From the NCBI GenBank assembly GCA_963810095.1, contig CAWEMM010000002.1, forward strand, positions 160,001-224,000: DNA of 64,000 bases. The letters run 5' to 3'. Within the stretch, counting starts at the first letter, position 1. Each line of letters starts with the position of its first letter. The notes under the pieces are model-generated. The model was not told the origin of the DNA, searched no databases, and saw nothing but the letters and a program-made list of their open reading frames with translations. The position numbers and the translations under genes were made by a program. The DNA comes from an uncultured Chloroflexia bacterium. Lineage in GTDB: Bacteria > Chloroflexota > Anaerolineae > CG2-30-64-16. Positions 22,714-62,343 of the stretch are shown here, in pieces.

Positions 22714-22787
<74 letters not shown>

Positions 22788-22794
22788 TCGATTG

Positions 22795-22835
22795 ACCTGG
22801 TCCTGTCCCGCCCCCGTCGACAAGGCCAGGTTTTG
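22795..22835 (+). terminator. Hairpin with U-tract after the tRNA
   Basis: ACCTGGTCCTGTC...GACAAGGCCAGGT-TTTT. Confidence 0.6.
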
Positions 22836-22853
22836 TTATTTGCCGGAGGTTTG

Positions 22854-24238
22854 ATGTCGCAAATGGTTTCGCCCGACCCGCGGCGCAGTCTGCCCAGCGT
22901 CGACCGCCTGATCGCGCAGCCCGAGCTGGTGTCCGCGGCCGAGATGCACGGACGGCAGGCAGTGCTCGCCGCGGCGCACCAGGTGCTGGGTGAAACGCGA
23001 TCAAGCATCGGGCCAGGGCGGCCTGCGCCCGACCTGGCAAGGCTCGTCGCGATGGTGGGCGAACGGCTCGACCAGGACGTGGCGCCGACCCTGCGATACG
23101 TCATCAACGCCACCGGCATCATTATCCACACGAACCTGGGCCGCGCGCTGCTCTCCTCGGAGGCTCGGGCGGCCATGGTCGCGGCGGCAGCCGGCTACTC
23201 CAACCTCGAGTACGACCTGGAGACGGGCAGCCGCGGCTCGCGGTATGTCCATGCCGAGGCCCTCCTGTGCAAGCTGACGGGCGCAGAGGCTGCGCTCGTC
23301 GTGAATAACAATGCCGGTGCGGTTCTGCTCGCACTCACTGCCTTGGCCCGCGGTCGCAGCGTCGTGATCTCCCGCGGCCAACTGGTCGAGATCGGCGGCG
23401 GATTTCGCATCCCCGACGTGATGCGCCAGAGCGGCGCCCGGCTTGTCGAGGTGGGCACGACCAACCGGACGCACGGCCGCGATTTCGAGAACGCCGTAGA
23501 CGCAGACACCGCGCTCCTGCTCCGCGTGCACTCTTCCAACTTCAGGCAGGTCGGCTTTACCGCGGAGGTCGCGCTGTCCGAGATGGCTGCTATCGCGCAT
23601 ACCCGCGGGATCCTGCTCGTGGACGATCTCGGCAGTGGCACGCTGCTCGACACCTCGCCATACGGGCTCGCCGCGAGCCCTTGGTGACGGAAAGCATCTC
23701 CGCCGGCGCGGACCTGGTGACGTTCAGCGGCGACAAGCTCCTCGGCGGTCCGCAGGCGGGCTTGATCGTGGGGCGGGCCGATCTCGTGGAGAAGCTGCGG
23801 AGGCACCCGCTGACACGGGCGCTGCGCGTGGACAAGGTGACGCTGGCGGGGCTGCAGGCCACGCTGTTGCACTATTACCGCGGGACCGCACTGGCCGAGA
23901 TACCGGTGTGGCAGATGATCGGCGCGCCCGCCGCGAACCTTCAACGACGCGCAGCTGCGCTGATCGCCGAGCTAGACGCCGCGGGGGTGCAGGCCCGGGG
24001 GCTTGCGCTGCAGAGCGCGGTGGGCGGCGGCTCGCTGCCCGGAGAAACCTTGCCGAGCTTCGGCTTGGCCATCGCGGGCCCGTCGCCCGATCGCCTGGGT
24101 GCGGCGCTTCGTAAGGGCAGCCCACCCGTGGCAGCGCGGATTGCCGAAGGGGAGCTCCTGGTCGACCTTCGTACCGTTCAGCCGGCCGAGGACAGTGCGC
24201 TGGCTAAGGCGCTGGTCACGGCATATTTGAGCTTGTGA
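22854..24238 (+). CDS. selA: L-seryl-tRNA(Sec) selenium transferase (selenocysteine synthase); frameshift near 23673
   Basis: VINATGIIIHTNLGRA, VVNNNAGA, SRGQLVEIGGGFRIPDVM, EVGTTNRT, DDLGSG, FSGDKLLGGPQAG (PLP Lys), RALRVDK, VGGGSLP; GGAGG RBS. Confidence 0.95.
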
Positions 24239-24247
24239 GACAGGACA

Positions 24248-24650
24248 ATGAGTGAGACGCTGACGTTCCAGGCGCGCACGATCAAGGCGGGCCGCGCGGA
24301 GGGCCCGGCCCTGGTGTCCTCGGCGCCGATCGGTTTTCTGGGCGGGGTCGACCCGGACACTGGAATCGTGCTCGAGCCCGGGCACCCGCTGCAGGGCCGC
24401 ATCGATCAAAGGTTCGGTCCTCGTGTTTCCCACGGGCAAGGGCAGCACGGTCGGGTCGTATACGATCCTGCGCCTCGCCAAGAGCGGCGCAGGGCCGGTT
24501 GCGATGATTAATGAGAGCAGCGAGGCGATCGTCGCCGTCGGCGCGATCATCGCCGACGTGCCTATGGTCGACCAGGTGGACATCGGACAGATTCGCGACG
24601 GCGACTGGGTGCTGGTCGACGGCGGCACGGTGACCGTTACTCGCACGTAA
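24248..24650 (+). CDS. Aconitase X swivel domain (DUF126; phosphomevalonate dehydratase small subunit-like); frameshift near 24401
   Basis: GFLGGVDPDTG, GHPL, FPTGKGSTVGSY, IVAVGAIIADVPMVD. Confidence 0.88.
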
Positions 24651-32214: not shown

Positions 32215-33970
32215 TTGGCACCCGCCTCTGCATCGCACGCCGGACGGCAGGGCCGCGATGAGCGGCTGACCGCGGCGCCCGACGTCGCGTTGCGGCCTGT
32301 CTCACGCGGCGCCCGGTTCGCGCCCGCGTTACGCGTGCTGCCCCTCGTCGTGGCACTCGCCCTGTTTCTGCTGGCCGGCGCGTACCAGTTGACGCTGCCC
32401 GGCCTGCACTATGACGAGGCGAAGGAAGCCGGCGTCAACGCGATGCAGATTCTCACCGGCCAGCCCGTGACGGCCTTCCGCGACGCGACGGTGGGCCTTG
32501 GACCGTGGCGTGTCCCGCTCATGGTGCAGGACTACATCGGCAACCTCAACGTCCTGCTGGCGGTCCCCTTCCTCGCCGTGGGCGGAATCAACACGGCTGC
32601 CTTGCGGGCCCTGCCGCTGCTGATTGCAGCCTTCACGCTCGTGTTCACCTGGATGATCGCGAACCGCCTTGGGGGCCCGCTGGTCGCAGCCGCAGCCGCC
32701 CTGCTCCTTGCCGTCAACCCGTCGTTCGTCTTCTGGAGCCGCCAGGGGATCTTCGTCACGAACAGCACCGCGCTGTTCTTCATGGCGAGCCTGTGGTTTG
32801 GGCTGCTGTGGTGGCAAGGCCGGCGCCCGCTTCACCTGGTCCTGGCCGCGCTCTTCTGCGGGCTCGGCATCTATGCAAAGCTGCTGTTCGTCTGGGCTGC
32901 GATCGCGCTGGTGGTGGTGGCCGTCGCTGCGCTGGCCTGGGAGCGCCGGACGCTCGGGCGCTGGCGACTGCCCACGCTGCCCGCCCTCGCCGGCGCGGCC
33001 GTAGCATTCGTTCTCCCACTCGCGCCGCTGATCCTCTACAATGTGCGCACGAGCGGCACACTGCTATCGGTCTTTGGTCACCTCGGTCGCTCGTATTACG
33101 GCGTCGACAACAGCGCGTACGGTAGCAATCTGCTGGCCCGCCTGAATCAGTTGTTTGTGCTCTTGCGAGCCGACCACTTCTGGTACCTCGGCGGCGTGCA
33201 CGCCAACGAGTATGCGACCCTGGCTCCTGCTTGCGCTCGTCCTCCTTGCCGCAGCCGGCTGGTTTGGCGCGAGGCTCGCCGGTGCTGCCAGTAGTCAGCC
33301 GGAGCGCCGCTTCTTCACTCCTGCCCTTCCGCTGGCCCTGCTGATCCTGATCGTCCTGCAGAGCGCTTTCACCGTGAGCGACCTTTTCATCACGCACTTT
33401 GCGCTCCTGACGCCGCTGATCCCACTGATCGCCGCACTTAGCTTCGGCGAGATTCTTCTCTGGGCGAAGGGCCGCAGGCGGGGTCTGCGGCGGTTGGCCG
33501 TTGCCACCGCAGCGGTCTTAATCACCGCCTGGTTCGCGACCGATGCCTACACGGTCGTGCTCTACCACCGCAGCCTGGCCGTGTCGGGGGGCTACCTGGC
33601 ACATTCCGACGCGATCTACCCGTTGGCCGCGTACCTGGATCAGCAGGGTTATCAGAGGCCAGTCGCGCTCGATTGGGGCATCGACGCACCTATCCGTTTC
33701 CTCACCGCCGACCGGGTGCAACCCATCGACGTGTTCGGCTACGACCGCCTGGATGCGCCTGATCCCGGGTTCATGAAGCGCATCAACCCGTACCTGGATA
33801 ACTCGGACACCATTTGGATCGCTCCGCCCCCTGGCAGGGCGGTGTTCAAGGGCCGGGTGGAGATGATCGAGGCGCTGACGGCGCAGGGGTCGAAGTGGCT
33901 GGAGCAGATCCGCTTCAGCCAGCGCAGCGGCGAGCCCGCCTACTTCGTGCGTCGCTTTTTCAGAAGGTAG
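32215..33970 (+). CDS. ArnT/GT39-like membrane glycosyltransferase; frameshift near 33217
   Basis: GLHYDEA, LLLAVNPSFVFWSR, GLGIYAK; continues in ORF 33155-33970; start uncertain. Confidence 0.78.
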
Positions 33971-57844: not shown

Positions 57845-58944
57845 CAGAGCGCCTTTAGCGCCTCGACAAAGTTCCTTCGCCCCAACCCCACCCGAAAGTG
57901 TCCCGGCATATCGAACATCTCTCCCGGCGCGATCATCACCCCGCGCTCGCGCACGGCCGCGTCCGCAAATTCCAGGGACGACCCCGGCAGCCGTAGCCGC
58001 GGGAACGCGACCGGCCCAGCCAGCGGGGCAAGCCACTCAAACGCGTCCGGCCGGCTGGCAAACCAACGCTCGGCATGGTCGACGTTCGACCGCACAATTT
58101 GCCGGTTGCGCGCCACGATGCGGGCCATGGCCCGCAGGGCCACGATGCTGAGCACCTCGCTCGGCGCGCTGCTGCAGATCGTCGTGTAATCCTTCATCTC
58201 GCCGGCCCTGCGTAGAAGCTCGCTATCGCGCGTCGCCAGCCAGCCGGTGCGCAGGCCGGGCAGCCCGAAGGATTTGGACAGGCCCGACAGCGTCACTGCC
58301 TTCTCGTAAGTTTCACACGCTGACGGCAGCCGCTGCGCCTCGTCGTACTCCAGCCCGCGGTACATTTCGTCGGAGAAGAGCGTGATGCCGTGCTCTTCCG
58401 CAGTGCCAACGATGCTGTGCCAGGTCTCATGCTCGGGCAGGTAACCCGTGGGATTGTGCGGGAAGTTGACGGTGATCAACTTCGTGCGGCTCGTGATCAA
58501 TTCGTGCAACTCGTCCGGGTCAAGGCGCCATGCGCCGTTCTCGGCGTGCAGCTGCCACCGCTCAATCTGGCACCCGAGCGAACGGGCGATTTCTTCGAGC
58601 GATTGGTAACACGGCCACGTCAGCACGACCTCGTCGCCCGGCTCGAGCAGCGCGTGCATCAGGATGAAGATGGCTTCTTCGGGTGCGGCGACCAGCACGT
58701 CAGCGGCCTCCACCCCCGCATACAGCTCGGCGATCTGCTCGCGCAGCAGCGGGTGGCCTGCAGATTCCGTATAGCCCAGCCATAGCCGTTCCCACAGCCC
58801 CCGCGTTTCCTCGTCGGCCAGGGCCAGCAACTCGGGCAGCGTCATGCTCTCGCAGTCCGACGCGCTCAGCAGGTGCCGGGCAGTGAACTCGTGCTCGGCA
58901 AAATAGCGTTCCAGCTTGAAAGTTTTGAGCTGCATGTCACTCAC
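57844..58944 (-). CDS. Class I/II PLP-dependent aminotransferase
   Basis: NFPHNPTG, SDEMY, SGLSKSFGLPGLRTGW, FRVGLG. Confidence 0.92.
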   Translation of the reverse strand: MSDMQLKTFKLERYFAEHEFTARHLLSASDCESMTLPELLALADEETRGLWERLWLGYTESAGHPLLREQIAELYAGVEAADVLVAAPEEAIFILMHALLEPGDEVVLTWPCYQSLEEIARSLGCQIERWQLHAENGAWRLDPDELHELITSRTKLITVNFPHNPTGYLPEHETWHSIVGTAEEHGITLFSDEMYRGLEYDEAQRLPSACETYEKAVTLSGLSKSFGLPGLRTGWLATRDSELLRRAGEMKDYTTICSSAPSEVLSIVALRAMARIVARNRQIVRSNVDHAERWFASRPDAFEWLAPLAGPVAFPRLRLPGSSLEFADAAVRERGVMIAPGEMFDMPGHFRVGLGRRNFVEALKAL

Positions 58945-58947
58945 TTC

Positions 58948-59016
58948 TTAACACAAAGACACAAAGCCACAAGGATTAGCAGCGCCCTCGTGTCTTTGTG
59001 TCTTCGTGTTTTCGTT
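58948..59016. repeat. Intergenic palindromic repeat, family A
   Basis: AACACAAAGACACAAAGCCACAAGG ... CCTCGTGTCTTTGTGTCTTCGTGTT. Confidence 0.72.
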
Positions 59017-59019
59017 CGA

Positions 59020-61062
59020 TTACTGGCCTAGCAGACCATCCAGCGTCTGGCTGAACTGCTGGAAGGGCAGCGCGCCTGAGAGCGGCGTTGGGCTGCCCGT
59101 CTCCTTGCCGTCCTGCATCTTGTACAGGAAGAATGCCGGGGTGCCGCGCACGCCGAGGGCGGCCCCGTCCTTCATGTCCTTGTCGAGCTGCGCCTGGGTC
59201 TTCGGATCGGCGATACAGGCGTCATACTTCGCCCCGTCGGCGCCAAGTGCAACGGCCTGGGTGCGGAATTGCGCCGCGGCCTCATTCGTCCCCAGCCCTT
59301 GCCACGAGTTTTGATTCTCGAACAGCCAGTCGTGCATCTCCCAGAACAGTTTCGGGTCCTGGTCGCCCGTGCAGAGCCCGGCCTTCGCCGCGCCCGGCGC
59401 GTTCGGATGGATGTCGAGCGGGAAGTTCCGATAAACCTGTACTACTTTGCCCGTTTTCATGTACGCTTCATACAGAAGCGGTTCCGTCTGCTGCGCATGA
59501 CGGCCACAGAACGGTCACTGGAAGTCCGAGAAGTCGACGAGCTTCACCGGCGCATTCGGATCACCCCGGTAGAAGTTCCCGTCCGCATCCCGTCCCACCT
59601 GCAGGCTCGCCAACTCAGACTTTGAGATCGAAGGCGGCGGGGTGGGCGTGGGCGTCGGCGGGACCGAGATGTCCTTGACTGCCTGGATGAACTGGTCCAG
59701 CGTCACCGCACCTACCAGGGGCTTCGAGTTCTCGGGCTTGCCCTCTGCGTTCAGCTTCAGCAGCAGGTACGCGGGCGCCTGGGGCACCCCGATGTCCTTC
59801 TGGCTGAAGGCAGTGTAGTTGTCGATGGTCGCCTGGGTCTTCTCGTCCTTCAGGCACGCGGTGAAGGCCGCTTCGTCCAGGCCGAGGCTCTTGGCGTAGG
59901 CCTGCATGGCCGCGTCGTCGCCCTCTTGCCACTCCGCCTGCTTGGTCAGGAGCAGGTCTCGGAACTCGAAGTATTTGCCCTGTTGGCCGGCGCAGTAGGT
60001 TGCGATGGCCGCCTTGGGCGATGCCAACGCAAAGATCTGCGAGACGAAGCGCACCTGGCCCTTGTCGATGAAATCGGACTTCAGCTGCGGCTGCACGTTC
60101 TTGGCGAACTCGGCGGAATCGGGGCTCTTGAAATCCTCGAACGCCAGGATGACGACCGGCGCTTTCGCGTCGCCCAGGTAGAAGCTGCCGTCGAAGTTGC
60201 GGCCGGCCCGCTGCGGATCCGTCTGCCAGAACTCAACGCCCTGGGGCAGCGGCGTAGGCGAGGGCGGCGGCTTCTGGCCGGCTTTCGCCTTCGCGATGTA
60301 GCTATCGAACTCCTCCACAGGCAGCGCGCCCAGGACGAGCCAGTCGTTGATGTAGAACGATGGGGTGCTCTGGACGCCAAGCTGCTGCGCGGCCTGGGTC
60401 TCCTGCTGCACCTTCTGTGTGTACTTGCCCGAGTCCAGGCACTGGTCGAAATCGGCCGTCTTCAGGCCGAGGTCCTTGGCGAATCCCTTCAGCTTGTCCT
60501 TGGCAAATGCGCCTTGGTTCTCGCCGTTCTGGCTCTCGAACAGCTTGTCGTGATACTGCCAGAATTGTCCCTGGTCGCCCGCGCACTCGCTGGCTTCCGC
60601 GGCCCACTGGGACTCTTCGCCCAGGAAGGCCATGTGCATGTAACCGAACCGAACATCACCCGACTTGACGTACTTTTCCTCGATCTGGCGACCCGCGCCA
60701 GTGGCCCAGCGGCCGCAGAACGGTCACTGGAAGTCGCTGATCTCGATAATGGCGACCTTTGCGTTGGGGTCACCTTTCCAGTGCGTCGTATACTTCGCAG
60801 CGGGGTTGATGCCCGCCGAGGCACCGGCTTCCTGGCTCCCCGGCTCGGCGGTGCCTGCCGGTACGACCGGGCCGGTGGCCGTGGTTGCCTGGGGCCCGGG
60901 CTGCACGGTTGCGCCGGGGGTCGTTTGCGCAGCCGCCGTGGGGGCCGGCGCGCTGGGCGGCGCGGTGCAGGCTGCCACCAGCAGCGCGACCACCAGCAAG
61001 CCCGCGGCCAGGGTGCCCCGGCCGGCCTGCCTGAGCCTGGCACGAGACTGGGTTTTCCTCAT
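59020..61062 (-). CDS. Triple DsbA/thioredoxin-domain lipoprotein, predicted selenoprotein with two Sec (U113, U516), 680 aa
   Basis: ORFs 60724-61065, 59515-60639 and 59020-59460 are in one frame, separated only by TGA at 60724-60726 and 59515-59517, both in SDFQ-TGA-PFCG; lipobox LVAAC; AAGGAGG RBS. Confidence 0.9.
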
Positions 61063-61113
61063 CAAGTCCTCCTTTTGGACTGGGCGGGCGCCGAGCAGGG
61101 CAGAGCGCCGCCA

Positions 61114-62290
61114 TCAATACACAAACTCGCGGATATCATAGCGCGCCAACTGGGGCCCGCTTTCGCCGGCCCGCCCGAGCGCCGCTCGCAGCGCCGCTTC
61201 CTGCGCCAGCGTGTCCTGGGCCGAGAGCGCTTGCACGCCGGCCTGCTGCGCGAGCGCGCCGTATTCAGAACCGGGTTGCTCGAAGAACGGCGAGAAGTAG
61301 ACGATGTCGCCGGTTCCCAGCGGCATTGCGGCGAGCGCCTCCACCGTGTAACGCACATGGTTGGGCGCAAAGCGTCCACCGCCAATGCCGGTCATCACGA
61401 TCACGCTGACCGCGACGCCGGCCGCCTTCAGCGTGCCGACGGCGTCGACCACGTCGGCGGCCGACCCGGGCTTGCGCAGAAATTGCAGCAGCTCGTCGTC
61501 GCCGCTCTCCATGCCGATGTAGACCCGACGCAAACCCCGACCGGCCAGTTCCGCCCACTCTGCCGTAGACTTCCTGCCCACGTCAAACGCGTCGATAAAT
61601 GAGAAGACGCCCCCCGGCCGGCGCACGCCCGCGGCATCGATCACGTCCAACCACTCGCGAATGCGGGGCATGGGTGCGACCAGGGCGTTCGCGTCGGCCA
61701 GAAAAAGCGACTTGCGCAGGCCGGCGGCCGGGCCAAAAAACGCCTGCACATCGGCGACATGTCGCTTCAGCTCGTCCGCGCTTTTTATGCGGAACGGCCG
61801 CCCGCGATAGAAATCGCAGAACGTACACCTGTTATACGAACAGCCCTCTGTCGCCTGGATCACCAGCGCCAGGTATTGGTCGGGTGGCAGGATGCTGACG
61901 GGCCGGTAGATGCGGGTAAACTCGCGCGCGTCCTCGGTCAGCCGCTCGGGCGTCCACCCTGTCAGAACGTCGAGCCGGCGGTCATTCAGGGATAGGGCCG
62001 CCGCTTCGGCCAGCGCATACACTTCCCGCACAAACCGGCCCGCCTCGCCGGCCGCCAACCACCGGCGCTCGCGCCCCTGCGCGCCCGGCCACTTGCGCAG
62101 CACGCGGCCGTCTCAGCGCGCGGCGATAGTTGTAGCCGTCGACAAACGCGCCGACCAATCGCCCGGCGAGGTCGAAGGAGTAGCTCGGCTGCTCATCCCC
62201 GACAAGGACGTTAATCGCGACGGGCCGCAGCCGCACGGCCACCGGCCCGTAACCTGGTAAGGTGCAGTTAAATATCTCCGTGGGCATCAT
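61114..62290 (-). CDS. Radical SAM protein; frameshift near 62108
   Basis: QATEGCSYNRCTFC (CxxxCxxC), FLADANAL, YIGMESG; N-terminal part in ORF 61982-62290. Confidence 0.88.
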
Positions 62291-62343
62291 CCGACCCTGT
62301 GACAGACAGTCGGGCTATTATAAACGAAGCAGTCTAAATATCC

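Follow-up and report, generated by a model that had tools for sequence, protein, structure and literature searches.

A gene on the minus strand of a 64,000-nucleotide stretch of DNA from an uncultured Chloroflexia bacterium (GTDB lineage Bacteria; Chloroflexota; Anaerolineae; CG2-30-64-16; GenBank assembly GCA_963810095.1, contig CAWEMM010000002.1, positions 160,001 to 224,000; hereafter the window) very likely (probability roughly 0.88) encodes a single 680-residue lipoprotein with three DsbA-class domains, both in-frame UGA codons of which would be decoded as selenocysteine (Sec, U). Translation table 11 divides the locus into three open reading frames (ORFs) that share one frame (60724..61065, 59515..60639, and 59020..59460), and reading TGA as U gives a frame that is unbroken from the ATG at 61062 to the terminal TAA and that holds exactly two U among its 680 residues (Table 1). 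Both TGA codons occupy the first cysteine (Cys) position of a DsbA-type CxxC motif and lie 1.2 kb, or 403 residues, apart in duplicated domains; orthologs with equal length and architecture exist among the relatives. Since many independent assemblies have TGA at both of the same codon positions, the pattern is, on the sequences compared, beyond chance, and the frame with two TGA codons is almost certainly a real selenoprotein gene.

Reading frame, architecture, and exchange of selenocysteine with cysteine

Taken as three genes, the second and third pieces would start mid-domain, 3' of the active site of the domain. Public gene calls annotate only fragments of the gene, with a 374-aa and a 146-aa piece called as separate proteins, and 374-residue middle pieces (72–83% identical) occur in other metagenomes, either unnamed or as 'protein-disulfide isomerase'. 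The original prediction, a model's reading of the window, had described three ORFs interrupted only by TGA, two matching contexts (ISDFQ-TGA-PFCGRW and FSDFQ-TGA-PFCGRH), a gene split by standard gene callers, and a cis-Pro-type loop in each domain (STP, QAP, and GTP). The ORFs, the contexts, and the split are recovered exactly, and all three loops are present with their prolines in invariant or near-invariant columns of a 35-protein alignment (T233-P234, P430, and T641-P642). The frame was also given correctly, though the minus strand was left unstated. Its central proposal of a 680-residue surface lipoprotein with two Sec sites gains support from frame continuity, Sec/Cys exchange, downstream hairpins, and a lipobox.

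The N-terminus has, by sequence, a charged start, a hydrophobic stretch, and a V-A-A-C32 lipobox, followed by a linker rich in Pro, Ala, Thr, and Gln that reaches approximately residue 90. A comparable [AGSV][AGC]C follows a hydrophobic stretch in the 14 orthologs with an N-terminus seen in a single frame, C32 is nearly invariant in the 35-protein alignment, and lgt (two copies) and lspA are encoded in the genome. Pfam identified three stretches of Thioredoxin_4 (PF13462; E 5.7e-83; score 277.5 bits, cut-off 23.2), with DSBA (PF01323) also matching. A further pair of conserved Cys residues lies in each domain (C160/C208, C357/C403, and C564/C616). Domain 2 is predicted to be redox-dead, its CxxC being replaced by SPDS, and because more distant orthologs (G009, G017, G020, G022, G015, and G019, where G000 denotes the genome carrying the window and the other G numbers its relatives) still have CPxC or CGYC in this motif, the inactivation would be recent.

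The read-through protein was searched against 41 genomes (G000 and 40 relatives from the same class) and matched in 39; active sites were then surveyed at the 20 best loci from 20 genomes, all within the window's own Anaerolineae family. These loci hold 41 active-site motifs (27 TGA, 14 Cys), the 27 TGA being spread over 19 genomes, and loci at which TGA recurs contain no other stops. Three-domain orthologs have U at both outer sites in nine genomes (G000, G001, G002, G004, G007, G009, G014, G016, and G017), Cys then U in five (G005, G010, G020, G021, and G024), and Cys at both outer sites in one (G022), with site 1 incomplete in a further two (G003 and G006); at the G003 locus (L023) the first active site is four N codons, printed XXXX, and hence its state is unreadable. 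TGA homologous to UGA no. 1 occurs in G001, G019, G015, and G030, and TGA homologous to UGA no. 2 at 22 other sites of type A in relatives. A metagenome protein (P0003), 76% identical, begins just past site 1 and carries Cys at the second site; from this protein and the ortholog tally, the combinations U/U, C/U, U/C, and C/C all exist.

A tree built from 40 domain sequences after masking of the active-site residue, from which one Cys row interrupted by a contig end was omitted, requires at least four Sec/Cys changes, two of which are forced by well-supported branches; its third-domain clade has Sec in 16 of 16 rows. Among named genome records, SDFQ-type motifs are all-Cys in 78 of 80 loci, with U in two metagenome-assembled genomes (MAGs) of the Anaerolineae/Anaerolineales. 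The expectation of the original prediction that non-Sec relatives would carry Cys at both sites is matched by the alignment of U with Cys across the family loci and P0003. Sec use in this type of domain appears from these comparisons to be widespread in the class. More distant relatives (L148, L149, and L150) have [GSA]DFQ-U-P[YA]C followed by still other downstream sequences.

Hairpins downstream of the UGA codons

Each UGA is followed just downstream, within the coding sequence, by its own hairpin resembling a selenocysteine insertion sequence (SECIS), and the two hairpins differ in type (type B at site 1, type A at site 2; Table 1). The published model for bacterial SECIS (bSECIS) elements specifies a loop of 3–9 nt, a stem of 4–16 bp, a G in the first two loop positions, a distance of 16–37 nt from the UGA, and a minimum free energy of no more than -7.5 kcal/mol (PMC13188914, Fig. 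2 legend). The type B hairpin fits this model on every point (6 bp, CGGGU, 28 nt, -9.2 kcal/mol). Its six pairs are complete in five of five Sec forms, with G030 showing two compensatory pairs and one G-U pair, and five Cys forms retain 0–3 of the six.

UGA no. 2 is followed by two helices, of which helix 2 (6-bp stem, UGUAU loop) is the proposed SelB-binding hairpin and helix 1, which is conserved, is proposed to act as a spacer that shortens the path to it. In an alignment of UGA no. 2 with its 22 homologous Sec sites (alignment A1; 23 sites, compared with 8 homologous Cys sites), 92.8% of the 345 cells of the whole structure are paired, against 33–41% with the partner slid; five pairs are changed on both sides, and none of 500 shuffles reaches the observed values. 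The same columns in the 8 Cys sites are 48.3% paired, which is not above shuffles. Helix 1 is paired in 87.9% of cells in the Sec sites and helix 2 in 100% (loop UGKAU), the latter compared to 47.9% in the Cys sites. In G007_D3 and G004_D3 the stem of helix 2 is CAUCUC/GAGAUG, in which both partners of three pairs differ. Codon choice follows the same division: at a synonymous site, a conserved Thr is encoded by ACG in all 23 Sec forms and in 2 of the 8 Cys forms, and an Arg is encoded by CGU in 22 of 23 and 3 of 8, respectively.

A third type of hairpin (CCGGCU/CGUGA/AGCCGG, 26 nt after the UGA) was observed in single-domain DsbA-like genes of other Anaerolineae (L135, L136, L139, and L140, motif SDFQ-U-P[FY]C), with shifted or compensated versions in L137 and L138. 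All three types combine a stem of 6 bp with an N-G-[G/U]-N-N pentaloop. A search of Rfam over positions 58900–61200 gave nothing relevant, the sole match being a chance-level P2 small RNA (E 7.9, 17.6 bits against 80).

The genus contains two builds of the first domain. G000 and G001 have a first domain of the type of NCBIfam family NF041057 with a type B hairpin, and the first domain of G002–G007 instead resembles the third domain of the query (56–59% identity). In G019 (L031) and G015 (L034/L147), the domains are distributed over two adjacent genes, one with a type B Sec domain and a dead domain, the other with a CGYC domain and an A-type domain that has Cys in G019 and Sec in G015, a distribution that points to domain shuffling in the family.

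The upstream neighbour of the DsbA gene is a radical S-adenosylmethionine (SAM) gene with the motif CxxxxCxxC, and the downstream neighbour encodes a class I/II aminotransferase. Both also flank the DsbA gene in L023, and the radical SAM gene is upstream in L029 as well; despite this synteny in relatives, no functional tie of either neighbour to the DsbA gene was found.

Table 1. Positions of the features discussed, in window coordinates
Feature	Position	Strand	Details
Whole gene	59020..61062	-	680 codons with TGA as Sec; stop TAA 59022-59020
Shine-Dalgarno-like AAAAGGAGGA	61067..61076	-	Ends 5 nt upstream of ATG 61062; read from sequence
Signal peptide and lipobox V29-A30-A31-C32	60967..61062	-	Cys codon 60969-60967
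Domain 1, residues 92-257, Thioredoxin_4	60292..60789	-	Active site U113-P-F-C116; cis-Pro-type loop S-T233-P234
UGA no. 1, Sec113 (numbered from M1)	60724..60726	-	Context ISDFQ-U-PFCGRW
Type B SECIS hairpin (site 1), putative	60685..60701	-	6-bp stem CUGGCG/CGCCAG; loop CGGGU; 28 nt UGA to loop
Domain 2, ~residues 290-470, Thioredoxin_4 by sequence	59653..60195	-	Approximate limits; S313-P-D-S316; loop Q-A429-P430
Domain 3, ~residues 495-680, Thioredoxin_4	59023..59580	-	Active site U516-P-F-C519; loop G-T641-P642
UGA no. 2, Sec516	59515..59517	-	Context FSDFQ-U-PFCGRH
Helix 1 after UGA no. 2	59484..59503	-	CCGUC...GACGG; three inner pairs; proposed spacer hairpin
Helix 2 after UGA no. 2, type A	59464..59480	-	6-bp CGCUUC/GAAGCG; loop UGUAU; 40 nt UGA to loop
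selA	22833..24238	+	365 bits; two frames, base missing near 23675
tRNA-Val (tac)	22714-22787	+	Directly upstream of selA
Class I/II aminotransferase gene	57847-58944	-	Downstream of the DsbA gene
Radical SAM gene	61117-62311	-	Upstream of the DsbA gene

Decoding apparatus and alternative explanations

The original prediction implied that selB, selC, and selD should occur in the genome, and all three do: tRNA-Sec (selC; 72.6 bits, anticodon tca by ARAGORN) on C13, selB (302.5 bits, a 674-residue open frame), and selD (378.3 bits, with one in-frame TGA). The selD gene (L017, G000:C6:1337268-1338194) has its TGA in the context ...SACAG-U-ASK... and, in a single-sequence fold, two predicted tandem hairpins after it. 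The second of these has a G-U loop at ~33 nt from the TGA, and the arrangement resembles that of type A. The placement of selA in the window by the same prediction was borne out, though its frameshift had been missed.

TGA in the reads, a further expectation of the original prediction, was looked for in Logan short-read contigs from four runs of one study, which leave 60825–61200 uncovered; 20 public runs contain part of the stretch (best share, 0.29), none recorded as RNA. The covering contigs have TGA at both sites, with no other letter listed at 59515–59517 (three bridging contigs) or 60724–60726 (one bridging contig), and two of the bridging contigs are variant strains with 12 differences each.

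Several points weigh against the decoding of both UGA as Sec in a single lipoprotein gene. Read support is thin, and is weak because depth is 2–7 and the runs, from one study, may include the source sample. The loop of helix 2 lies 40 nt from its UGA, beyond the 16–37 nt of the bSECIS model, with stem and loop otherwise fitting (PMC13188914). Since the hairpins sit within coding sequence, part of their conservation is protein constraint, and the three double changes in helix 2 are probably a single event because the G007 and G004 sequences are close kin. Folding energy is unremarkable: 102 of 200 shuffles fold as stably as the 62 nt that follow UGA no. 1 (z = 0.06), and 11 of 200 do so for UGA no. 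2 (z = -1.80); it was dropped as SECIS evidence on these values, and the case for the hairpins rests on the comparison across genomes. Finally, selA is frameshifted in the assembly, with G000 lacking one base near 23675 that is present in five relatives.

If this frameshift is real, the strain would be unable to make Sec-tRNA: the lineage would use the gene as a selenoprotein and this strain would have lost Sec decoding, leaving truncated products only and a gene heading to decay or to conversion to Cys. The missing base in selA speaks for this improbable alternative, but comparison of the window with the syntenic 80 kb of G005 revealed at least three further places at which a conserved gene switches frame (near 24385, 33300, and 62120), a pattern of indel errors. 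These fall at 24375–24397 in a small gene after selA, at 33270–33350 in a gene of ~590 residues, and at 62112–62126 in the radical SAM gene immediately upstream of the DsbA gene. Moreover, selA is whole in four many-contig assemblies (G003, G005, G007, and G024) and is split at a different place in the 10-contig assembly G002, the assembly of the genus-mate G001 has many frame changes within the same DsbA gene, and in G000 neither the DsbA gene nor selD has decay apart from the TGA codons. Based on the other frame switches, the different split in G002, and the frame changes in G001, the break in selA is read as being very probably an indel error of the assembly.

Read-through of the UGA codons without Sec, through insertion of Trp or Cys by a near-cognate tRNA or through a reassigned code, would suffice in that the sequence by itself demands only read-through, but is a very improbable explanation. 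TGA is the commonest stop in the genome, terminating 1400 of the 2783 open frames that are 400 codons or longer, and therefore the code is not reassigned; the gene upstream also terminates at TGA, in the same place as its orthologs, and a reassigned code was rejected on both counts. The genome encodes a Sec apparatus that is full apart from the break in selA, along with SECIS-like hairpins, and the UGA codons fall at the catalytic Cys position, for which Sec/Cys exchange is known (PMC1088965, Table 3). The least probable alternative is that the locus holds three independent genes, or one gene inactivated by a pair of nonsense mutations or by sequencing errors. It accounts for the three ORFs of table 11 and the public calling of pieces 2 and 3 as proteins, but was rejected given the recurrence of TGA at both codon positions (27 sites across 19 genomes, without other stops), hairpins that persist only with TGA, the absence of active sites from pieces 2 and 3, and contigs from other runs that keep TGA.

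Proposed function and comparison with known systems

With both UGA decoded as Sec, the protein would be a lipoprotein anchored on the outside of the cell membrane, SelB and Sec-tRNA(Sec) having inserted Sec at each UGA under the direction of its own hairpin. The product would present U-P-F-C in domains 1 and 3 on either side of the redox-dead S-P-D-S domain, with the active domains alternating between selenolate/thiol and selenenylsulfide as they exchange with the cysteines of exported proteins, followed by recycling through a membrane partner. By its sequence, it is thus predicted to be a lipid-anchored thiol-disulfide oxidoreductase that has two selenol sites and acts outside the cytoplasm. 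Candidate partners in the genome are a VKOR homolog with CxxC (94.6 bits) and DsbD_TM proteins (114.9 bits); DsbB had no match in the genome, which is 88.5% complete, so that its absence is thereby not shown. VKOR is the usual partner type of DsbA-class enzymes where DsbB is missing. Because VKOR-type and CcdA/DsbD-type partners are both encoded, the direction of the reaction (oxidase or reductase/isomerase) is not fixed. A selenenylsulfide has a lower potential and exchanges faster than a disulfide, and such a bond would favour isomerase or reductase work, or oxidation by low-potential quinones.

A broader proposal is possible but tentative, and is considered less probable than its opposite: envelope thiol-disulfide chemistry in this Anaerolineae family would be selenium-based, with a lipoprotein of a-b-a' arrangement like that of protein disulfide isomerase (PDI), two independent recodings per mRNA, and a bipartite SECIS at site 2. 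If true, selenol sites would flank a redox-dead, substrate-holding DsbA domain, the spacer hairpin would bring an N-G-[G/U]-N-N pentaloop into range from 40 nt, outside the bacterial SECIS model, and the U/U, C/U, U/C, and C/C combinations among close relatives would form a natural test bed for the contribution of Sec.

Since the gene is public only as pieces, and similar 374-residue pieces exist in other metagenomes, a set of envelope selenoproteins in Anaerolineae is currently missed or truncated in annotation. A bacterial ORF with two UGA codons and hairpins of different types would test SelB-dependent decoding under repeated events, and a hairpin 40 nt from its UGA would likewise test the published spacing rule. 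Because relatives differ in having Sec or Cys at each of the two sites, they provide naturally matched pairs in which to measure the effect of selenium on the redox potential and kinetics of a DsbA-type site.

Eukaryotic PDI is arranged as a-b-b'-a'. The protein resembles it in architecture only, with two active thioredoxin-fold domains around a redox-inactive one in a single chain, and differs in that its domains are of DsbA type with a helical insert, it is lipid-anchored, and it has Sec for Cys. Domain 3 aligns over ~155 residues, including FSDF-C-PFC and GTPAF, with solved DsbA-class structures (4pwp_A/4pwo_A 'DsbA', 7unn_A, 3f4r_A, and BdbD 3eu3_A; E 3.1e-16 for 4pwp_A to 3.2e-07 for BdbD), which, unlike the gene here, are single-domain Cys enzymes. 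All-Cys tandem Thioredoxin_4 proteins with three or four SDFQCPFC domains share the repeat design and motif context (28–34% full-length identity), but have Cys at every site and domains that are usually all redox-active, whereas the present protein has Sec at two sites and has lost the middle one. Such proteins are common in Chloroflexia, other Anaerolineae, Ardenticatenaceae, and many Myxococcota MAGs (L043-L048, L053-L093, and others); no paper on tandem DsbA domains was found in the literature searched.

UXXC selenoproteins of DsbG-like (COG1651) and DsbA-like (COG2761) type have been known since 2005 (PMC1088965; PMC1794560). The DsbA-like selenoprotein form 1 (PF01323, UxxC, 1 Sec; COG2761 in PMC1088965) has Sec first in the motif and a DsbA-type thioredoxin fold, as here, but is a single domain with a single Sec, and the best Pfam match of the present protein is Thioredoxin_4 and its NCBIfam match DsbG-like, not the COG2761 type. 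Of 119 selenoprotein families considered in a 2026 review, the vast majority have one Sec and a small subset two or three (PMC13188914). Archaeal FrhD/VhuD (2 Sec) and the UxxU proteins listed in its Table 1 likewise have more than one Sec per chain, but several of the two-Sec entries are UxxU, with both Sec in one motif, whereas here each UGA has its own hairpin. The three-domain, two-Sec form has no entry in that table, and no description of a multi-domain, two-Sec form was found in the literature searched.

The closest known relative is NCBIfam NF041057, the 'Rcas_1661 family thioredoxin-like (seleno)lipoprotein', listed in the same review as 'DsbG-like protein, UxxC, 1 Sec' (PMC13188914, Table 1). 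The protein scores 409.2 bits on this model in three stretches, where the curated cut-off is 190. Residues 22–257 span positions 2–245 of the 247 in this profile, covering a lipoprotein signal, a linker, and one UxxC domain, and the motif and the exported lipoprotein design are the same. With NF041057 curated and DsbG-/DsbA-like UXXC proteins listed since 2005, neither the family nor the concept of an exported Sec lipoprotein is new; the claim in the original prediction that an exported multidomain double-Sec protein is unusual therefore stands for the three-domain, two-Sec form and not for export as such. NF041057 has a profile of 247 positions with one listed Sec; the chain described here has 680 residues in three domains, with UxxC in the outer two and SPDS in the middle one, and its gene has two SECIS hairpins of different sequence. 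With this domain and motif content, the gene is a variant form rather than a plain member of NF041057, and the novelty lies in the combination of three domains, two Sec, and a distinct SECIS hairpin for each UGA, the second hairpin standing at a distance of 40 nt.

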